The notes under the pieces are model-generated. The model was given only the letters and a program-made list of their open reading frames with translations. It made no database searches and was not told where the DNA came from. A stretch of DNA of 64,000 nucleotides from Rubripirellula sp. (lineage in GTDB: Bacteria; Planctomycetota; Planctomycetia; Pirellulales; Pirellulaceae): the NCBI GenBank assembly GCA_965216875.1, contig OZ244207.1, positions 4,608,001 through 4,672,000 of the forward strand, in the 5' to 3' direction. The first letter of the stretch is position 1; the number at the start of each line of letters is the position of its first letter. Shown here piece after piece: positions 8,358-64,000 of this stretch. Both the position numbers and the translations under genes were made by a program.

Positions 8358-9977
8358 ATGTCAGAATCTGGTGATCCCAACGAAACCATTGGCCACACAA
8401 GTGGGGAAGGTGTTCAGCCCCCACTCGAAGATGTGATGGCCGCGTATTTGGAGGCGGCCGAATCGGGAGAATCACCCGATCCAGCACAATTCCTCCTCGA
8501 TTATCCCGAGCACGCCCAAGAGCTGCAGAGCTTTTTTCGCAACCACCATTGGCTGGGCGAGGCGCCGGCCGAGTCGGCAACCTTGGTCGGGTCGCAAATT
8601 GGCCCCTACGAGATCGAAGCCGAAATCGCTCGCGGCGGCATGGGGGTCGTCTATCGTGCTCGCCAATCTGGGTTGGATCGACCCGTCGCGTTGAAGTTGA
8701 TCAGCAGTGGTGTGTTGGCCGGGCAGGAAGAACGCCGCCGTTTTCGCATTGAAGCCGAAGCGGCCGCACGACTGCATCATCCCGGAATCATCGCGATCCA
8801 CGAAATCGGCTCGTGGCAAGGCTATGAATACTTTTCGATGACCTTTGTCGACGGCCCAACGTTGCAAAAACGCGTCGACGAAGATTGCTTTGACGACGAA
8901 GAGGCCGCCAAGATCGTTCGCGACATTGCTCGCGCGGTCGCCTACGCTCACCAAACCGGAATCGTCCACCGCGACCTCAAACCCGAGAACATCTTGATCA
9001 GCGACGACGGTCGCCCGCTTGTCACCGACTTTGGATTGGCGAAATGGCATCGCGATGGAACGATGATCACTCGCACCGGTCAAGTTCTCGGCACACCCCA
9101 TTACATGAGTCCCGAACAAGCGTGTGGTCGTGGTGATGGCGATCAGGCAACCGACATCTATTCGCTTGGCGCCATTCTCTATGCCTTACTCACCGGCCGA
9201 CCGCCACACGTCGGTCCGTCGGCGGCCGAAGTCCTGCGAAGTGTCCTGCAAGATGAACCTGAACCGCCGCGTCAACTGCGCCGCGACGTCCCTGCCGACC
9301 TCGAAAACATCTGTCTCAAAGCGATCCGCTACCAGCCCGACGAGCGGTACGAATCGGCCAACGCGCTGGCCGACGACCTGCAACGCTACCTTTCAGGCGA
9401 AACCACCAGCGCCGCTGGCAGCGGATTGCTCGACCGCATGGCGCGCGAGATTCGTCGCGATCAACACCAGAACTTCTTCGAGGATTGGGGACGCACACTG
9501 GCGAGAATCGGGATCATCATCATGGTGGCCCACGTCGCAATCTTTGCGTTGGTCGAGATGCCCATTCCGGTATGGATCGCCTACTGGATTCCGCGAATCG
9601 GGATGATGATCGGGATCTTCGCCGCAATCTATCACGCCCGCGAAGGCGCGTTGCTGCCTCGGTCGGTTGCCGAACGACCGGTGTGGTCGATCTGGCTCGG
9701 ATACCTCGCCGCGCTGGGCGTGATCAACGTGTTGTTGATCTTTGGGGGCGGCGATCACCTTGAACTCTTTCCCGTCGCCTCTGCGCTGAGCGGCTTTGGT
9801 TTCATTGCCATGTCGGGGCACGTTTGGGGCGGTTCCGCAATCTTTGGGCTCGCCTTCCTTGTGGTCGCCGCGTTGACCGCGTTGCTGCCGCAGGCGGCTC
9901 CCCTTCTTTTTGGCGGCATGTGGTTGATCAGCATGCTCGGAATGGGGCGGCACTATCGTGCCAAGAGTGATCAATAG
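8358..9977 (+). CDS. Hanks-type Ser/Thr protein kinase with C-terminal TM domain
   Basis: ARGGMGVVY, VALK, HRDLKPEN, DFG, GTPHYMSPEQ, DIYSLG. The ATG at 8358 avoids overlap with the divergent gene. Confidence 0.93.
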   Translation: MSESGDPNETIGHTSGEGVQPPLEDVMAAYLEAAESGESPDPAQFLLDYPEHAQELQSFFRNHHWLGEAPAESATLVGSQIGPYEIEAEIARGGMGVVYRARQSGLDRPVALKLISSGVLAGQEERRRFRIEAEAAARLHHPGIIAIHEIGSWQGYEYFSMTFVDGPTLQKRVDEDCFDDEEAAKIVRDIARAVAYAHQTGIVHRDLKPENILISDDGRPLVTDFGLAKWHRDGTMITRTGQVLGTPHYMSPEQACGRGDGDQATDIYSLGAILYALLTGRPPHVGPSAAEVLRSVLQDEPEPPRQLRRDVPADLENICLKAIRYQPDERYESANALADDLQRYLSGETTSAAGSGLLDRMAREIRRDQHQNFFEDWGRTLARIGIIIMVAHVAIFALVEMPIPVWIAYWIPRIGMMIGIFAAIYHAREGALLPRSVAERPVWSIWLGYLAALGVINVLLIFGGGDHLELFPVASALSGFGFIAMSGHVWGGSAIFGLAFLVVAALTALLPQAAPLLFGGMWLISMLGMGRHYRAKSDQ

Positions 9978-53154: not shown

Positions 53155-54663
53155 CTAGACGGCGCCAACTTCCATCGAAGTGCCCATCGTTTGACCGGGA
53201 GCGGGCAGGTTGCTCGAACCGGTCAAGTAGATGTCGATCGCGCGGGCAGCTCCGCGACCTTCGTTGATCGCCCAAACGACAAGGCTTTGACCGCGACGGC
53301 AGTCACCCGCGGTGAACACACCTTCGATGTTGGTCGCGTAAACACCATGTTCGGCTTGGAAGTTACTGCGAGGATCGACGTCCAATTGCAATACATCGGC
53401 AACGTACTGCTCAGGACCGAGGAAACCCATCGCCAGCAAGATCAACTGCGCGGGCCATTCCTTTTCGCTACCTTCGACTTCGGCCATTTCCCAACCGCCG
53501 TCGTCGTTCTTGGTCCATTTCACCTCGACCGTTTTGATGCCACGAAGATTGCCATCGTCGTCGGTCAAGAACCCTTTCGAGAGGATCTGGTACTCGCGAG
53601 GATCGCGTCCAAACTTGGCCTCGGCTTCTTCGTGACCGTAGTCGACGCGGAAGATACGCGGCCATTCTGGCCAAGGGTTATCTTCGGCGCGATCTTCTGG
53701 CGGTTTGGGCAGCAATTCAAAGTTCACCATGCTGCGGCAGCCGTCACGGATACTGGTTCCGATACAGTCGGTTCCGGTATCACCACCACCGATGACGATC
53801 ACGTCTTTGCCCTCAGCACTGATGAAATCGTTGCCGAGAGAATCGCCGTGGACCACTTGTTTGGTATGGGCGGTCAGGAATTCCATCGCAAAGTGAACGC
53901 CTTTAGCATCGCGATTTGGAATCGGCAAATCACGAGGCTTGGTCGCACCACAAGCGAGTAGCACGGCGTCGTTGTCTTCGTGAAGCTGTTTCGGGTCAAC
54001 GTTTTGCCCGACGTTGGCGCCAGTCACAAACTTGATCCCTTCGGCTTCCATCTTGTCCAAACGACGTTGCAGCACGTCCTTGCCAAGTTTCATGTTTGGA
54101 ATGCCGTACTGCAGCAAGCCACCGATACGATCTTCGCGTTCGTAAACGGTGACTTCGTGACCCGCCTGGTTGAGCTGATCCGCAGCGGCCAATCCGGCCG
54201 GACCACTACCGATCACAGCGACCTTTTTGCCGCTGCGCGTTTCTGGCGGATCAGGTTGAATCCAACCTTCGGCCCACGCGCGGTCGATGATCGCGTTTTC
54301 GATGTTCTTGATCGTCACTGGTGGGTTATTGATGCCAAGCACGCACGAACCTTCGCACGGGGCAGGGCAGACACGACCGGTGAACTCAGGAAAGTTGTTG
54401 GTCTTGTGCAAACGCTCGTTGGCTTCTTTCCAACGATTGTTGTAGACCAAGTCGTTCCATTCGGGGATCAAGTTGTCGATCGGGCAACCTGTTCCCGACT
54501 GACAGAACGGAACACCACAATCCATGCATCGAGCGCCCTGCTGTTGCAGTTGTTCGACGCGAGGCTCGGTGTAGATCTCGTCGTAATCGTTGATACGGAC
54601 GACCGGCAGACGCCATGGCACTTTCTTGCGATCAAACTCTTTAAAACCGGTTGGCTTTCCCAT
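53155..54663 (-). CDS. gltD: Glutamate synthase small subunit
   Basis: [55 protein letters not shown]. Confidence 0.97.
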
Positions 54664-54726
54664 CGCTCGTTACTCTCAAAAAGACTCTTCGTTGTATTCG
54701 GTTGTTCGGTGGACTTGGATGATTGA

Positions 54727-57700
54727 CTAGGCGGTTGCCGACTCTTCCTGACGTTTCATTTCTTCCAAAACGCGTTTGAAGTCGGTTGGCATCACCTTGA
54801 CGCATTGGGCCAGGAAGCCGTCCCAATCATCAAGCACTTGCTGGGCAACAACGCTGCCGGTGTACTGCTGATGACGGCGAACCATCTCCTTGACGTCCTC
54901 TTCTTCCTCGGACGTTTCGATCTTTTCCAAAGCGACCGTTGCAAGGTTGCAGTTCAAATTAAAATCGCCGTCACGATCCCAGATGTAGGCGATCCCGCCC
55001 GACATCCCAGCGGCAAAGTTACGCCCAGTGGCTCCCAGGCAAACCATGCGGCCACCGGTCATGTATTCACAACCATGGTCACCAACGCCTTCGACCACGG
55101 TCCGTGCACCACTGTTGCGAACACAGAAACGTTCGGCCGCACGACCGCGGAAGTAAGCCTCGCCACCCGTCGCTCCGTAAAGGCAAACGTTACCGATCAG
55201 AATGTTGTCTTCGGCCGTGAAGCTACTTTCACGTGGCGGGAAGACAACCAATCGACCGCCGCTGAGGCCTTTGCCGACATAGTCGTTCGCGTCGCCTTCG
55301 AGTTCGATTGTCACGCCGTGCGAAAGGAACGCACCAAGACTTTGTCCTGCCGAGCCGGTCAGTTCGATGCGGACGGTGTCCTCTGGCAGCCCCTTTTGCC
55401 CGTAACGTTTTGCAATCTCGTTGCTAAGAATCGTGCCGACGGTGCGGTTGATGTTCACGATCGGTGATTGGATCGTGACCGGCTCACCCCGCTCGAGCGC
55501 CGGTGCGGCTGCTTCGACCAACTTGGTCAAGTCGAGCGACTTTTCCAAACCGTGATCTTGTGCTTGTGTGCAGATCACGTCGACGTCGTCGTGTGGTTTG
55601 TTGGCAGGCATCAACACCGAAGTCAAATCCAAGCCGTCTGCTTTCCAGTGCTTGATCGCCGCATCGGTTTCGAGCACTTCGCTGTGACCGACCATCTCGT
55701 CGATCGACTTGAAGCCAAGTTTGGCCATCAAACGACGAGCTTCCTCGGCAACCATGAACAAGTAATTGACAACGTGTTCTGGCTTGCCGGTGAATTTCTT
55801 ACGCAGGTCGGGGTCTTGAGTCGCGATTCCGACAGGGCAAGTGTTCAAGTGACACTTCCGCATCATGATGCAGCCCATCGTGATCAGCGGAGCGGTTGAG
55901 AAACCGAATTCTTCGGCACCCAACAATGCCGCAACCACGACGTCGCGACCCGTTTTCAATCCACCGTCAGTTTGCAGGACGACTCGGCTTCGCAGGTCGT
56001 TAAGCACGAGAACTTGGTGCGTTTCAGCGATCCCAAGTTCCCAAGGCAGACCCGCGTGTTTGATGCTCGTCAACGGCGAAGCACCCGTTCCGCCGGTGTC
56101 ACCCGAAATCAGGATGTGATCGGCGTGTGCTTTGGCAACACCGGAGGCGATCACACCGACGCCCACTTCACTGACCAACTTGACGCTAATCCGCGAGGCG
56201 CGGTTGGCGTTCTTCAAGTCGTGAATCAGTTGCGCAAGGTCTTCGATCGAATAAATGTCGTGGTGAGGCGGAGGACTGATCAGACCGACCCCCGGCGTGC
56301 TGTAACGAATTCGGGCGATGTTCTTATCGACCTTCTTGCCTGGCAGTTCACCACCTTCGCCTGGCTTGGCACCCTGCGAGATCTTGATTTGGATCTCATC
56401 TGCGTTGGTCAAGTATTCGATCGTGACACCAAAGCGTCCCGACGCAACTTGCTTGATGGCCGAACGCTTGGAATCGCCGTTCTCGAGCGGCTGGAAACGA
56501 ATGGGGTCTTCACCACCCTCGCCGGTGTTGCTTTTGCCACCCAAACGATTCATCGCGATCGCGAGCGACTCGTGCGATTCGGCACTGATGCTGCCGAAAC
56601 TCATCGCACCGGTACAGAACCGCTTCACGATTTCTTTGGCTGGTTCGACTTCGTCGAGTGCAATCGACTTGCGAACGTCTTCTTTGAAGCCAAGCAGACC
56701 ACGCAGCGTGCAACGCGAACGATTGTCAGCGTTGATGGTGTGGGCAAACTTCCAGTAAGCGTCTTCGTTGTTGTTTCGAGCAGCAAGCTGCAGATTCGAA
56801 ATCGCTTGTGGCGACCAAGCGTGCTTTTCGCCTTCGGCTCGCCAGTGGAATTCGCCCATATTGGGCAACTGAGGCAACTGGTCGTCGACGCGTTCGGGGA
56901 AACCGAGTGCATGACGACGCAGCGTTTCTTCGGCGATCACGTCGAACGACACACCTTGAATGCGGCTCGCCGTACCCACAAAACACTTGTCGATCACTTC
57001 ATCCTTCAAGCCAAGTGCTTCAAAGATTTGGGCGCCCTTGTAACTTTGCAGCGTCGAGATGCCCATCTTGGCCATCACCTTCAGCATGCCCTTGGCGACG
57101 CCTTTGCGATAAGCGGCGACAACCTTGTCATCATCAAGCGATGGATCCATCAAGCCGTCACGGCGAGCCTGCCAGAGTGCTTCGAAGGCAAGGTAGGGGT
57201 TGATTGCGTCCGCACCGTAGCCGATCAACAAACAGTGGTGATGCACTTCGCGAGCTTCGCCCGACTCGACGACCAATCCGATTCGCGTTCGCTTGGCTTG
57301 TTTGACCAAGTGATGGTGGACGGCACCAACGGCTAGCAGCGAGCTGACCGGAATTCGATCCTGCGAAACGGCGCGGTCCGTTAGCACAACAAGCTGGATG
57401 CCTTCGTCGGCGGCCGCTTCCGCTTCTTGAGCGATACGGTCGAGCGTCTTTTGGAGGCCCGCTTTGCCTTCGCTGCGATCGAACGTGATGTCGATCACAC
57501 GGCTATGCCAACCTTCGTAGTTGATGTGTTTGAGCGCCGCGATTTCTTCGTTGGTCAAGATGGGGTGATCGACCAACAAGCGATGGCAATGCTCTGGGGT
57601 CGCGTCGAGCAAGTTTTGCTCGGGACCGATGTAGCATTCCAACGACATGATCACTTCTTCGCGAATCGAATCGATCGAAGGGTTCGTGACCTGGGCGAAG

Positions 57701-59349
57701 AGTTGCTTGAAGTAGTCGTAGATCATGCGCGGCTTGTCGCTCAAACAAGCGATTGCGCTGTCGTTGCCCATCGAACCGACGGGATCACGAAGCTGCTCGA
57801 CCAGCGGACGAAGCATGAAGTTCATCGTCTCGGATGAATACCCGAACGACTGCATGCGTGGCAAAAGGGTGTCGCTATCGAAGCCATGGGGTTCGGTTTC
57901 GGGATGCAAATCGCTCAAACGAATCCGCTGTTCACGCAGCCATTTGCCGTACGGCATTGCACGAGCAAAATCACTCTTGAGTTCTTCGTCAGGGATCATG
58001 CGTCCCTGTTCGAAGTCGACCAGGAACATCTTGCCTGGTTGCAAACGACCTTTCGCCTTGACGATTGCTGGATCGACCGGCAACACACCCACTTCGCTGG
58101 CCATGATCACGCGATCATCGTGTGTGATGTAGTAGCGGCTTGGACGCAAACCGTTTCGGTCGAGCGTCGCACCGATGTACTTTCCGTCGGTAAAGGCGAT
58201 CGACGCAGGACCGTCCCAAGGTTCCATCATGCACGAGAAGTATTCATAGAAAGCACGCTTCTCTTCGGGCATCGTTTCGTGCTTTTGCCATGCTTCGGGG
58301 ACCATCATCATGATCGCTTCTTGAAGCGTTCGGCCGGTCATCAACATGAACTCAAGCACGTTGTCGAACGTTCCCGAGTCACTGCAATGTGGCTCGATGA
58401 CGGGGAAGAGCTTTTGCAGCTCGTCGCCGTAGATGTCGCTTGCGGCCGATCCTTCACGAGCCCGCATCCAGTTGCTGTTACCACGCAGCGTGTTGATTTC
58501 GCCGTTATGGCTCATGAAACGCAGCGGTTGAGCGCGGTCCCAACTGGGGAAGGTGTTGGTCGAGAAACGACTGTGCACCATCGCCAAGTGTGTTTCGTAG
58601 TCTTCGTCACGAAGGTCAGGGAAGTACGGCAACACCTGCTGCGGTGTCAGCATCCCTTTGTAGATGATCACTTTGGTGCTGAGCGAACAGATGTAGAACA
58701 TCAACGCTTGCTTGAGTGTTTCGCTACCACGCAGGGCATGACTTGCCTGCTTGTGGATCATATACAGCTTGCGTTCGAACTGTTCCGAATCGAGTCCATC
58801 GGCAGCGCTGACGAACAACTGTTCGATCACAGGTTCGCTGTTGCGCGCCGTCGGGCCAACGTCGGCAAGATCCGTTTCTTGCGGGACGTCGCGCCATCCG
58901 AGGTGGTTTTGTCCTGCGTCGGCAACCAGCTTTTCGATCGACTCTTTGCAGAACGCACGCTCATCGGCATCGCGGGGCAAAAAGACCAGACCGGCGGCAA
59001 ACCGGCCTGGTTCAGGCAAGTCGACACCCAAGTCTTGCTTGGCGACCTTGGCAAGGAACTTGTGGGGAAGCCCGGTCATGATGCCCGAGCCGTCACCGGT
59101 GTTCGGTTCACAGCCGCATGCGCCGCGGTGATCCATCGCTTGCAGGATCGTGTCGGCATCGAGCACGTTTTGGTGACTCGGCTCGCCCTTGATGTGTGCG
59201 ATGAAGCCAACACCACATGCGTCTTTTTCCTGATTCGGGTCGTAGAGACCCTGTGCAGGAGGCAGGTGGAAAAGAGGTTCGTTGTTGTGTTCGTTCTTGT
59301 CTGTCATAACCATCTCGTCATTGCTTGCCAGCGATTGGCTGTTGAGCAC
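54727..59349 (-). CDS. gltB: Glutamate synthase large subunit
   Basis: DACGVGF, HSRFSTNT, HNGEINT, GAKPGEGG, CHLNTCPVG, GXGXG domain. Start may be the ATG at 59307. Confidence 0.98.
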   Translation of the reverse strand: MLNSQSLASNDEMVMTDKNEHNNEPLFHLPPAQGLYDPNQEKDACGVGFIAHIKGEPSHQNVLDADTILQAMDHRGACGCEPNTGDGSGIMTGLPHKFLAKVAKQDLGVDLPEPGRFAAGLVFLPRDADERAFCKESIEKLVADAGQNHLGWRDVPQETDLADVGPTARNSEPVIEQLFVSAADGLDSEQFERKLYMIHKQASHALRGSETLKQALMFYICSLSTKVIIYKGMLTPQQVLPYFPDLRDEDYETHLAMVHSRFSTNTFPSWDRAQPLRFMSHNGEINTLRGNSNWMRAREGSAASDIYGDELQKLFPVIEPHCSDSGTFDNVLEFMLMTGRTLQEAIMMMVPEAWQKHETMPEEKRAFYEYFSCMMEPWDGPASIAFTDGKYIGATLDRNGLRPSRYYITHDDRVIMASEVGVLPVDPAIVKAKGRLQPGKMFLVDFEQGRMIPDEELKSDFARAMPYGKWLREQRIRLSDLHPETEPHGFDSDTLLPRMQSFGYSSETMNFMLRPLVEQLRDPVGSMGNDSAIACLSDKPRMIYDYFKQLFAQVTNPSIDSIREEVIMSLECYIGPEQNLLDATPEHCHRLLVDHPILTNEEIAALKHINYEGWHSRVIDITFDRSEGKAGLQKTLDRIAQEAEAAADEGIQLVVLTDRAVSQDRIPVSSLLAVGAVHHHLVKQAKRTRIGLVVESGEAREVHHHCLLIGYGADAINPYLAFEALWQARRDGLMDPSLDDDKVVAAYRKGVAKGMLKVMAKMGISTLQSYKGAQIFEALGLKDEVIDKCFVGTASRIQGVSFDVIAEETLRRHALGFPERVDDQLPQLPNMGEFHWRAEGEKHAWSPQAISNLQLAARNNNEDAYWKFAHTINADNRSRCTLRGLLGFKEDVRKSIALDEVEPAKEIVKRFCTGAMSFGSISAESHESLAIAMNRLGGKSNTGEGGEDPIRFQPLENGDSKRSAIKQVASGRFGVTIEYLTNADEIQIKISQGAKPGEGGELPGKKVDKNIARIRYSTPGVGLISPPPHHDIYSIEDLAQLIHDLKNANRASRISVKLVSEVGVGVIASGVAKAHADHILISGDTGGTGASPLTSIKHAGLPWELGIAETHQVLVLNDLRSRVVLQTDGGLKTGRDVVVAALLGAEEFGFSTAPLITMGCIMMRKCHLNTCPVGIATQDPDLRKKFTGKPEHVVNYLFMVAEEARRLMAKLGFKSIDEMVGHSEVLETDAAIKHWKADGLDLTSVLMPANKPHDDVDVICTQAQDHGLEKSLDLTKLVEAAAPALERGEPVTIQSPIVNINRTVGTILSNEIAKRYGQKGLPEDTVRIELTGSAGQSLGAFLSHGVTIELEGDANDYVGKGLSGGRLVVFPPRESSFTAEDNILIGNVCLYGATGGEAYFRGRAAERFCVRNSGARTVVEGVGDHGCEYMTGGRMVCLGATGRNFAAGMSGGIAYIWDRDGDFNLNCNLATVALEKIETSEEEEDVKEMVRRHQQYTGSVVAQQVLDDWDGFLAQCVKVMPTDFKRVLEEMKRQEESATA

Positions 59350-59404
59350 CGCGAAATCGGAAAGCGAGCACCATTGCGACCGAAGCCAGCTGTGCTCGGC
59401 TCAC

Positions 59405-60382
59405 CTACGCGACAACCGAAGTCGCACTTCGACTGTCTATCGCGGAACCGTCCACGGCAGGATTTCCCCCGCTGCCGGATTTACTTCGTTTTCCCGAGTC
59501 GAGCGGACGTCCCAAGAGAAGCGAGCCGAACTCATTGGCAGCTCGACTGAGACGTCCTGATCGTCGGAAGATAATGCCCAGAGGTCGCGTCATGCGTAGC
59601 TCTCGACATGCGACGACTCGCAGTGAGCCGTCAGCGGTTTCGCGGCGAACCGCCGCTTCAGGTACGATCCCAATGCCACGACTGGCCTGGATCGCGCGAA
59701 CCATGGAATCTGCGTTATCAAATTCCATGCGAACGTTAACGTTGACGCCAGCCTTTGCCAAACCTTGATCCACCTCTTGGCGAAGTGGCAACTCAGGCGA
59801 AAAGCCGACCATTTCCATCCCCGTCAATTGCGACGGAGACACTTCGTTCTCGGTTGCCAACCGATGATTGGCCGAACATACGATCCGCATCGGTTCGTTT
59901 TGCCAATGAACGAATTGAAGTTGTTTTGTGCTCTTGGGGAAGCTGACCAAACCAAAGTCCACTTCACCTTCGCTGGTCATTTCGACGACACGCTGACTCG
60001 AACCAAAGTCCATCTTCACATCGACTTCGGGATGCAACCGCGCGAAGGCGTCACACGCCTCAGGCATGTAACTGAGACCAACCGAATAGATGGTGCCAAT
60101 GGAGATGCGACCACTCAGTCGCTTGCTGATGCTGCGGACCTCTTGCTCCAATCGGTCGTAACTTCGCAGCACTCCGCGGAGACCACGGAAGTAGGTCTTG
60201 CCAGCAGTAGTCAGAATAAGAGGTCGCTTCGAACGATTGATCAGTTCAACACCGAGCGACTCTTCAAGCTGTTGCATCGCCTGACTGACGGCGCTCTGAG
60301 TCAATTGATGAACGGCCGCAGCTTTAGAAAAGCTACGCTGTTCGGCAACGGTGCAAAAGATCTCGAGCGTTCGTAGGTGCAA
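59405..60382 (-). CDS. LysR-family transcriptional regulator
   Basis: SFSKAA, TQSAVSQ, LEESLGVELINR, LTTAG; substrate-binding domain follows. Confidence 0.93.
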   Translation of the reverse strand: MHLRTLEIFCTVAEQRSFSKAAAVHQLTQSAVSQAMQQLEESLGVELINRSKRPLILTTAGKTYFRGLRGVLRSYDRLEQEVRSISKRLSGRISIGTIYSVGLSYMPEACDAFARLHPEVDVKMDFGSSQRVVEMTSEGEVDFGLVSFPKSTKQLQFVHWQNEPMRIVCSANHRLATENEVSPSQLTGMEMVGFSPELPLRQEVDQGLAKAGVNVNVRMEFDNADSMVRAIQASRGIGIVPEAAVRRETADGSLRVVACRELRMTRPLGIIFRRSGRLSRAANEFGSLLLGRPLDSGKRSKSGSGGNPAVDGSAIDSRSATSVVA

Positions 60383-62172: not shown

Positions 62173-63618
62173 GTGGCAAAAGTCAAAGCTTGGAAGTATC
62201 ACGACTCGAGTCAACCATCCTTTCCTGACGACTTCGAGATTGCTCAGAAAGCGGTCCTGCAAGTCACGGACATCAAGACGAACAAAAACAAGTACTACGC
62301 CATCGAACTGCATGCCGCCGGTGGCAGCTTTCGGGTCTTCACCCACTACGGGCGAACCGACGACCTGGATACGAATCCTGAGAGCGGACAAAAGGAGTGT
62401 CGGTACGCCCTTTCGCTCGCGGAAGCTCAGGCGATCTACCAAACGATCTACAACCAAAAAACCTCCAAGAGCAAAGGGTACCAAGAGCTCGCCCTCGCCT
62501 CGAGCAACATCGGCTCACAGCAGGCTCGAGGCACAAGCAGCGGCGACGTTGACGACAAAACACTCGAAAAGCTCGCCGAAAAAGACAAAGCAAAAGGCAA
62601 GAAGGCGAAGAAGCCGAAGGCAAAGAAATCGTCGTTGCCAGCCAGCGTGCAGACCATCGTTCGCTACATGTACGACGAGGCCACCAACGCGCTCACGTCG
62701 ACCGTCCAGGCCAAGATCACGGCCAATGGAATTGAAACGCCGCTTGGCATCCTGACGATCGGCCAGATCGAAAAGGGAGAAGAAATCCTGACCGATGCCT
62801 ACGAGCTGTTCGGCAAGAAGCGAGCTCGTAACCGAGTGGAACGACTCGAGCAGTATTCAAGCGACTTTTACACCGCAATCCCGCATCGGTTTGGCCGCTC
62901 ACGAGCCGCAGCCGAAGCAGCAGTGATCAATTCACTTGCTGACTTTGAACAGAAACAAGAAACACTGCAGCTGATGAAGGACATGTTGCAGGTCAATGGC
63001 GAAGAAGGCAACGTTTTGTTCGACGCTGCCGTTGATAAAGAATACGAAGCGCTCGGCTGCGAGATTCAAACCGTTGACCCCAAGTCGGCGGAATACAAAG
63101 AGCTGAAACAGTACGTTGAAAAGAGCCAGATCAAGACAAAGACCATACGTGTCAAAAACGTCTTTACACTGCATCGCGAAGAAGAACGCACAGAGTTTCG
63201 AGAGAAACTGAAGAACCAACGCCAGCTTTTCCATGGATCACGAATCCAAAACTGGGTGGGGCTTTTGTCACGTGGGATTCTGATGCCCAAAATTGTGGTC
63301 AGCATGGGCGTCAATCGCACCGACGCCGGTTGGCTTGGTAACGGAATCTACTTTGGTGACGCCGCATGCACGAGCAACTTCTATACGACCCCCGGGAAAA
63401 AGAAAACTCGCTTGATGGCAGTTTGCAATGTCGCACTCGGCAAGGTCAAACAATTCCACAAAATCACTTATGGAATGGATGCACCTCCGAAAGGATACGA
63501 CAGCTGTCACGGCGTGCGACAACAAAAGGGCGTGCAGTCGCAATTCGCTGACGACGAGTTCGTCATTTACAACACCAACCAACAACACATGCAGTACTTG
63601 GTCGAATTCACAAGCTAA
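62173..63618 (+). CDS. PARP-family ADP-ribosyltransferase (WGR + regulatory + catalytic domains)
   Basis: GTG at 62173 after GGGGGA. WGR-like TNKNKYYAIEL...THYGR; regulatory TPLGILT...SSDFYTAIPH; catalytic LFHGSR, GNGIYFGD, CNVALG, YDSCHG, DDEFVIY. Confidence 0.92.
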   Translation: MAKVKAWKYHDSSQPSFPDDFEIAQKAVLQVTDIKTNKNKYYAIELHAAGGSFRVFTHYGRTDDLDTNPESGQKECRYALSLAEAQAIYQTIYNQKTSKSKGYQELALASSNIGSQQARGTSSGDVDDKTLEKLAEKDKAKGKKAKKPKAKKSSLPASVQTIVRYMYDEATNALTSTVQAKITANGIETPLGILTIGQIEKGEEILTDAYELFGKKRARNRVERLEQYSSDFYTAIPHRFGRSRAAAEAAVINSLADFEQKQETLQLMKDMLQVNGEEGNVLFDAAVDKEYEALGCEIQTVDPKSAEYKELKQYVEKSQIKTKTIRVKNVFTLHREEERTEFREKLKNQRQLFHGSRIQNWVGLLSRGILMPKIVVSMGVNRTDAGWLGNGIYFGDAACTSNFYTTPGKKKTRLMAVCNVALGKVKQFHKITYGMDAPPKGYDSCHGVRQQKGVQSQFADDEFVIYNTNQQHMQYLVEFTS

Positions 63619-63692: not shown

Positions 63693-64000
63693 ATGCGTGT
63701 TCGCATCGTTTTGGTCGACATCAATAAGAAGATGATCAACGCTTGGCGTTCGACTTTCGAAGAGAATCCCGAAGTCGAAGTCCTCGAGGGCTCGATGCTT
63801 TCGCAGGAAGTCGACGCTTGGGTCTCGCCAACCAATTCGCGTGGTTCGATGGATGGCGGCCTTGATGCGGTCATCAAGAACGAACTGGGTGGCCAGATTG
63901 AGAACAAAGTTCAAGCAGCAATCAAACAACAACACAGCGGCTTGATGCCTGTTGGTCACGCCACCTGCGTTCCCTCAGGTCGCACAAGGCCCAAGTTCTT
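63693..64000 (+). CDS. Macrodomain protein (ADP-ribose binding/hydrolase), 3'-partial
   Basis: Hand translation from ATG 63693 (RBS GAGGGG): MRVRIVLVDINKKMINAW...EVDAWVSPTNSRGSMDGGLDAVI...MPVGHA...; no stop before the window end; not in the ORF track. Confidence 0.88.
   Translation, partial: MRVRIVLVDINKKMINAWRSTFEENPEVEVLEGSMLSQEVDAWVSPTNSRGSMDGGLDAVIKNELGGQIENKVQAAIKQQHSGLMPVGHATCVPSGRTRPKF

Follow-up and report, generated by a model that had tools for sequence, protein, structure and literature searches.

A PARP with a predicted PARP4-type catalytic domain and a macrodomain protein mark one subclade of type XIII retrons

A gene for a three-domain PARP and, usually directly behind it, a macrodomain gene mark one subclade of type XIII retrons. 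The example described here starts near the end of the window (the whole stretch of 64,000 nucleotides of a Rubripirellula genome that was analysed). Most of the retron locus lies beyond the window end and is given on L001, which is the genome from window position 60001 on, an L001 position being the window position minus 60000. The PARP-macrodomain pair is very probably linked to the retron in function, and the PARP appears to combine a sensor like that of PARP2/3 with a catalytic domain like that of PARP4. Type XIII retrons and three-domain PARPs from bacteria were each already known and their pairing is new as far as found; in the literature searched, largely outside the subscription journals, no PARP linked to a retron is reported.

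With 143 candidates, or 11.1 % of one survey (PMC13712802), type XIII retrons are abundant and, in the papers found, their partners have so far been described by domain prediction only. In the PARP subclade there is an output that can be measured, ADP-ribosylation, from an enzyme whose catalytic and sensor residues are clear, and the role of type XIII msDNA therefore becomes testable.

The retron locus and its RNA

Starting from the PARP, the genes for the PARP, macrodomain, HEAT/ARM and SWIM proteins, the msr/msd RNA and the RT all lie on the + strand, followed by a convergent ARH gene (Table 1). The locus is a type XIII retron with RT, SWIM, HEAT/ARM and msr/msd RNA, and is predicted to produce msDNA. 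In the excerpts available of Mestre et al. (2020, PMC7736814), type XIII retrons (clade 10; Mx162, Mx65, Ne144, Sa163) comprise an RT, a SWIM protein (cluster 114) and a WGR-like/HEAT-ARM protein (cluster 216), and RT_XIII, SWIM, WGR-like/HEAT-ARM and msr/msd RNA occur here in the described order. In comparison, the present locus adds the PARP and the macrodomain at the head of the run and, often, an ARH. PARP, macro and ADP-ribos are absent as words from the main text of PMC7736814, whose supplement might list such clusters; the main text and eight supplementary files of PMC13712802 contain no PARP, and the Macro rows of that survey concern other retron types.

Table 1. Features of the PARP gene (window positions) and of the retron locus (L001 positions)
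Feature	Position	Strand	Remarks
WGR-HD-ART ADP-ribosyltransferase (PARP) gene	62173..63618	+	481 aa; predicted PARP4 (clade 5)-type catalytic domain
WGR domain	62236..62505	+	about aa 22-111; YGR at 62347-62355, NxNKYY and KGY motifs
Lys-rich linker	62581..62628	+	aa 137-152; variable across the family
Helical domain (HD)	62629..62997	+	aa 153-275; Pfam PARP_reg and model
ART domain	63028..63615	+	H354 (63232), Y393 (63349), E462 (63556)
Macrodomain gene	L001 3693-4415 (window 63693..64000, runs past the window end)	+	240 aa
WGR-like/HEAT-ARM protein	L001 4468-6957	+	PADLOC WGR_XIII, E 8.5e-92
SWIM protein	L001 6954-8627	+	PADLOC SWIM_XIII, E 4e-190
msr/msd RNA	L001 8637-8897	+	candidate branching G at 8679
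Type XIII RT	L001 8914-10308	+	PADLOC RT_XIII, E 8.9e-167; next best 2e-113
ARH, convergent	L001 10334-11428	-	Pfam E 3.8e-71

The 286-nt gap between SWIM and RT folds at z -9.6 and contains a 26-nt terminal inverted repeat (L001 8637-8662 and 8872-8897). The msr/msd RNA was recognised by its own fold and by covariation among the loci. The G that follows its 5' arm (8679 here) is invariant in 26/26 loci, as are the RT motifs YADD and retron regions X (NAxxH) and Y (VTG). Across these 26 loci, two-sided changes occur in 32 of 47 consensus pairs, a count that overstates the independent events because the RNA sequences are related, and in 19 of 26 windows cut by hand the terminal duplex outscores shuffled sequences (z < -3). 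The sequence of the msd stem (L001 8759-8813 and homologues) varies freely; a CTG-containing internal bulge near its tip is kept in the 26 aligned RNAs and is a candidate protein-binding site. Two tandem msr/msd copies with identical msr and differing msd hairpins are present in L042 (16707, 16956), and L002 (6855, 7294) has a second msr-like motif within the same gap; msr-like motifs inside the ARM region of L016 (12955) and L052 (13390) possibly arose by chance. A single RT may give rise to two or more msDNAs.

Rfam gave no matches at E <= 1 across the 9.9-kb locus, promoter and terminator scans of the locus gave no excess over shuffles, and the SWIM protein had no counterpart among solved structures (best E 0.14). 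A second, strain-level contig also covers the locus. Since the base composition of the locus is close to that of the genome (GC3 0.60-0.65 versus 0.66 for a neighbouring housekeeping gene), there is no sign of recent arrival. Within the window, the small and large subunit genes of glutamate synthase, with a LysR-type regulator upstream, were recognised from their translations at 53155-60382. Elsewhere in the genome, G000:C1:5965168-5966274 (L142) encodes a distant SWIM_XIII paralogue (27 %) with no RT match in the 14 kb examined.

Domain architecture and catalytic type of the PARP

The PARP is encoded by a single open reading frame from a GTG start at 62173, with GGGGGA 8 nt upstream, to a TAA stop. 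Pfam matches above the curated cut-offs cover WGR (residues 26-105, E 5.9e-9), PARP_reg (153-271, E 3.5e-18) and the PARP domain (305-479, E 1.4e-33); NCBIfam and PADLOC profiles assigned it to no family. Its AlphaFold2 model, built from a 149-row alignment, has a mean pLDDT of 93.4 and a pTM of 0.90, and superposes on break-bound PARP1 WGR-HD-ART (4dqy) with Z 28.3 over 387 residues and rmsd 3.5. The WGR and HD together match PARP1 7s81 (Z 17.2, rmsd 2.9), and the WGR aligns weakly with that of PARP2/3 (E 0.1-0.8). The WGR and the helical domain announced by the sequence-only reading are thus real, and the structure prediction and superposition that it had proposed yield a WGR-HD-ART fold; its YGR is correctly placed, and the Lys-rich segment as well as both helical-domain motifs that it quoted are present in the frame. 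The stretch to which it assigned this architecture (62173..63060) exists but amounts to just the front two-thirds of the 481-aa gene, ending before the catalytic domain (63028-63615). Among 8000 candidates, 857 proteins are related to the PARP at E <= 0.001, and the best 120 of these 857 include this very protein and, at 62-84 % identity, relatives over the full length.

The same reading had likened the whole architecture to PARP2/3. Fold, domain order and WGR surface bear this out, but the catalytic domain goes with PARP4. Its human matches are PARP4 (E 1e-49), PARP2 (1e-22), PARP1 (1e-14) and PARP3 (2e-12), and the HD+ART model matches the catalytic domain of PARP4 best (Z 32.0 and 31.3), compared with at most 29.0 for PARP1/2/3. 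Structural alignment of the ART alone with PARP4 8swz gives rmsd 1.9 and 44 % identity over 196 columns. In a 40-row IQ-TREE, hand-picked from the 161 rows of a FastTree run and rooted by outgroup, both trees being without human and Herpetosiphon sequences, ten bacterial PARP rows group together (95/87) on the side of PARP4. A 100/100 split separates the bacterial/PARP4 side from eight K903-bearing proteins, one of which was checked and has PARP1 as its best match. By sequence match, model match and tree, the catalytic domain is classed, on homology and predicted structure, as PARP4-type (clade 5) and not PARP2/3-type (clade 1). Amoebozoan proteins, at 35-45 % identity, are nearest among the named eukaryotic relatives.

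Membership of the PARP2/3 group (clade 1) is ruled out by T400 at the K903 position and by a catalytic domain that stands apart from that clade, and poly(ADP-ribose) synthesis is rejected on the catalytic-domain evidence. Orthology with vault PARP (PARP4) fails as well, the 481 aa comprising three Pfam domains only, without BRCT, VIT, vWA and MVP-interacting regions.

The H-Y-E triad (H354, Y393 and E462) is invariant in 32/32 aligned relatives. By alignment, T400 corresponds to PARP4 T484 and PARP1 K903, D460 corresponds to PARP4 D545 and PARP1 Y986, and a three-residue gap relative to PARP2 falls in the H826 loop region. In the excerpts of Frigon and Pascal (PMC10711553), the mono-only output of PARP4 is traced to T484, D545 and a short loop without H826, and K903/K469/K421 is the lysine conserved in PARP1/2/3. 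Since the acceptor site carries PARP4's changes, the product is quite likely to be mono-ADP-ribose. The T, the D and the short loop are thus features in common with human PARP4 as treated in those excerpts; in comparison with the human protein, the bacterial one has W387 at the position of PARP1 M890 (N471 in PARP4) and lacks the BRCT, VIT, vWA and MVP-binding regions.

The two proteins also differ in the WGR. Here, N37, N39, K40, Y41, Y59-G60-R61, K101 and Y103 are invariant in 32/32 aligned relatives, whereas in human PARP4 FLL replaces WGR and, according to the same excerpts, nucleic acid is probably not bound. Many protist clade 5 proteins likewise keep YGR, NxNKYY and KGY; those of Balamuthia, Pelomyxa, Arcella and Dictyostelium retain the WGR residues and the T/D acceptor pattern but are long and multidomain (BRCT, ankyrin, WWE). 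Retention of YGR, NxNKYY and KGY next to a PARP4-like ART is what suggests a PARP2/3-like sensor on a PARP4-like catalytic domain. With human PARP2 and PARP3 the protein has in common the minimal WGR-HD-ART architecture and the WGR surface, while its catalytic domain is far more distant from theirs than from PARP4 and is without the K903/K469/K421 lysine. Being small, bacterial and PARP4-type, with a predicted DNA-binding WGR still intact, the enzyme should help in asking how PARP4 regulation arose.

By analogy with such sensors, gating of the PARP by nucleic acid is somewhat favoured. In the model, the first HD helix runs unbroken from 157 to 177, the form also described for PARP4; the HD of human PARP4 is not a strict autoinhibitor, and RNA does not stimulate that enzyme (PMC10711553, in excerpt). 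Against most structures of the PARP1/2/3 catalytic domain, HD+ART gives an rmsd of 2.5-3.3, and against open PARP4 one of 3.1-3.6, a measure that does not separate open from closed forms. The linker has 10 Lys and a net charge of +7 here, compared with medians of 4 Lys and +2 among the 117 relatives parsed from the best 120 of 857, 80 of which have a net charge of at most +2. The sequence-only reading had made the linker a DNA-binding or automodification site; with so low a charge in most relatives this is unlikely as a family trait, and the Lys-rich linker was rejected as a functional feature of the family.

Three-domain PARPs from bacteria have been described before, mostly clade 1-like (PMC4245714, PMC8120803, PMC5966428 and 10.64898/2026.10.17.759577, all in excerpt), with 7/28 bacterial PARPs on record being of this kind in the available part of PMC4245714. 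The bacterial PARPs of Herpetosiphon aurantiacus and Clostridioides difficile CD160 have the H-Y-E triad, as here, and the Herpetosiphon enzyme needs DNA (PMC5966428, PMC8120803 and PMC4245714, as excerpted). Within the limits of these excerpts, they are mostly clade 1-like and make poly(ADP-ribose), whereas the present enzyme is clade 5-like, predicted to make mono-ADP-ribose and linked to a retron.

Distribution and partner genes

The PARP occurs at 53 loci of species-representative genomes, at 46-70 % identity, under the labels Planctomycetota, Myxococcota and Pseudomonadota (MAG labels can be wrong). By tblastn, on which the gene-neighbour counts rest, the macrodomain gene is directly downstream in 51/53 loci and elsewhere in the genome in the other two, the pair being in the same genome in all 53. 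The HEAT/ARM gene follows in 37/53, and the full PARP-Macro-ARM-SWIM-RT order is found in 27 of the 35 loci with at least 7 kb downstream. Among the 16 genomes without an adjacent ARM gene, ten have an RT or SWIM of the same subclade elsewhere (one of them on the sister branch); no subclade retron was found in the other six (6/53 overall), for which incomplete assemblies are possible. PARP, ARM, SWIM or RT frames are interrupted in L037, L049, L051 and L052, by sequencing error or decay. In L015, a second, distant PARP-like gene (8540-9247; 29 %) lies just upstream of the retron-linked PARP.

The retron subclade was present in 3/231 and 3/301 sampled genomes (about 1 %). Around a myxobacterial centre, 28 of the 231 genomes have a SWIM match, three of them at >= 55 % identity, and these three are exactly those with the PARP; since the sample centre G301 and G302 were already known PARP carriers, only G528 is an independent positive. 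In the host's phylum, SWIM_XIII was matched in 29 of the 301 genomes, and among 20 strong regions examined the subclade is present in G000, G118 and G117. The first two have a full PARP; in G117, whose contig ends inside the macrodomain, the PARP was not found. Neither PARP nor subclade retron was detected in 40 relatives. The patchy distribution of the PARP fits horizontal spread among bacteria, and to that extent the horizontal acquisition envisaged earlier stands; in the tree, whose backbone is open, any transfer involving eukaryotes may have gone either way.

Of 31 further type XIII loci, which come in windows of uneven length and include about a dozen near relatives from metagenomes, none showed a PARP, this macrodomain or an ARH. 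The PARP-carrying retrons form one branch in the RT tree (0.96) and in the SWIM tree (0.87), and a cross-phylum branch of Lysobacterales and Polyangiales is common to the PARP and SWIM trees. Over 26 loci, PARP tree distances correlate with those of ARM (0.81), SWIM (0.73) and RT (0.64), although physical linkage alone yields such correlations, and of 12 supported splits in the PARP tree, 5 are contradicted by that of the RT. In L105, which has the closest SWIM relative (69 %), the 1.27 kb upstream of Macro-ARM-SWIM contain an unrelated gene instead of a PARP.

Among solved structures, the macrodomain is closest to a chain labelled macroH2A and to a macrodomain protein of yeast, and it is likely an eraser or a reader. 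An acidic, DFDD-like C-terminal motif follows a variable linker in 47/52 macrodomain frames, the present one included; two of the five without it are frameshifted or miscalled. The tail is missing in L022, L036 and L041 and degenerate in L012, and no subclade retron was found in these four genomes, L022 and L036 not being independent because they have a common neighbourhood; two genomes with intact tails are also without a detectable subclade retron. This distribution is a weak hint that the docking site of the tail is the retron scaffold and not the PARP. DarTG combines an ART toxin with a macrodomain antitoxin. There too the writer gene precedes the macrodomain gene, and a weak DarG match was obtained (E 6.6e-4), but the ART architecture of DarTG is unrelated.

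An ARH match lies near 16/40 subclade loci, versus 0/31 of the other type XIII loci. Next to the cassette, ARH genes of two different families turn up repeatedly, those of the closer family (45-56 % identity) mostly in the position immediately upstream of the PARP and those of the distant family (about 26 %) directly after the RT; they are spread over L004, L016, L044, L047, L050, L051 and L052, and over L015, L029, L030, L033, L043, L092, L107, L110 and L113.

A possible effector role and its alternatives

Retrons in general gate toxic effectors, going by the excerpts of that literature at hand. With a confidence slightly short of even, we propose that the PARP4-type mono-ADP-ribosyltransferase, whose activity is predicted, serves as the retron's DNA-end-gated anti-phage effector, with the macrodomain as likely eraser. 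The WGR would bind a DNA end and the HD would relay the signal, as in PARP1-3. The complex of RT, msDNA, SWIM and HEAT/ARM would supply or mask this end, and phage-driven cutting of the msDNA or of the chromosome would turn the enzyme on, which would then add mono-ADP-ribose to its targets. The macrodomain, anchored on the retron scaffold through its DFDD tail, would clear background modification, and unchecked modification or use of NAD+ would stop the infected cell. That the PARP's part is a lethal anti-phage one is likewise tentative, its chances being a little under half.

Directly seen for the effector proposal are the gene order, the co-occurrence in cis and in trans, the intact triad, the intact WGR surface and the anatomy of RT and RNA. 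Co-occurrence, the single RT/SWIM branch, the frequency of ARH and the pattern of DFDD tails count for it. Against it count L105, G117, the 6/53 genomes without a retron, phage-borne PARPs without retron genes and the conflict with the RT tree, as does the frequent separation of PARP-Macro from ARM-SWIM-RT, which is unusual for a stoichiometric retron complex. DNA-end gating in particular has to be set against human PARP4, which is partly open and not stimulated by nucleic acid (PMC10711553, in excerpt). The core system functions without the PARP, which most type XIII retrons lack, and the PARP may be an accessory rather than the killer. Vertical inheritance and possible non-defence roles of type XIII have also been suggested in the available part of Mestre et al. 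(2020, PMC7736814).

An unlikely alternative is a genome-maintenance module, in which the PARP would label breaks in the chromosome with ADP-ribose and the macrodomain would read this label and bring in HEAT/ARM-SWIM-RT, with no killing of the cell. Action in trans would suit a signalling mark of this type, and host-correlated inheritance of type XIII (Mestre 2020, PMC7736814, as excerpted) agrees with it. SWIM-ligase-PARP fusions, which nest within the same bacterial PARP branch, point by analogy towards break repair, and eukaryotic-type relatives are fused to UDG, PNK 3'-phosphatase, RNA ligase or BRCT. However, presence in about 1 % of sampled genomes and in 0/40 relatives, together with the cross-phylum branches, fits a conflict system better.

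Less likely still is a regulatory switch, that is, a constitutively open PARP4-like enzyme that reversibly modifies retron proteins or msDNA, the toxicity residing in SWIM. The WGR residues for DNA binding that human PARP4 has lost are invariant here and the macrodomain accompanies the PARP in 53/53 genomes, as expected of a harmful writer; both speak against a switch, for which one can cite the model, with its unbroken first HD helix and PARP4 as its closest structure, the type XIII retrons elsewhere that carry only SWIM and ARM, and the one or two hydrolase genes that accompany the PARP. That an independent PARP-macrodomain pair merely hitchhikes beside the retron, as a stand-alone PARP2/3-like reading would imply, is very improbable: retron-less pairs (L012, L022, L036, L041) and phage-borne or ligase-fused PARP copies do exist, but order and orientation are fixed across at least three phyla and the association is kept in trans in 10/16 unlinked cases against a background of about 1 %.

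If the effector proposal is correct, PARP-style allostery would join the repertoire of retron effectors. A more specific version, in which msDNA directly gates the PARP, the WGR reading the state of the retron DNA, the HD relaying it, mono-ADP-ribosylation stopping the phage and the tethered macrodomain resetting the system, is rather doubtful. If true, it would provide the first retron with an ADP-ribosyltransferase effector and the first mechanism for type XIII retrons, and would place the PARP4 lineage in a bacterial immune setting before its loss of DNA sensing, mirrored by phage-encoded copies. The question is thereby raised whether PARP4 has kin in bacterial immunity, like the NADase domain of vault TEP1 (10.64898/2026.05.01.722283, in excerpt).

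Full WGR-HD-ART PARPs are also encoded on low-GC phage-like contigs of up to 459 kb (L143 3650-5044, L144/L145 7986-9386, L146 8001-9407, L147 272-1735). Four of these have 50-61 % identity and one is distant (25 %) in a similar gene neighbourhood; no retron genes lie close by, and around the PARPs of 50-61 % identity no macrodomain, ARM, SWIM or RT was matched in up to 8 kb on each side. Phage capture or counter-defence are possible explanations for these copies. The ligase fusions (P0272-P0276) are five proteins of 914-964 aa that combine an ATP-dependent DNA ligase with WGR-HD-ART; two are labelled Acidobacteriota, and the two fusions examined begin with a SWIM-like finger. Finally, the genome of the present locus encodes a second, distant PARP of 577 aa (G000:C1:214261-215994; L140 6262-7995, - strand) that has a WGR-like N-terminus and keeps the lysine at the K903 position; judging by its motif, the neighbouring gene presumably encodes a TARG1-type macrodomain.
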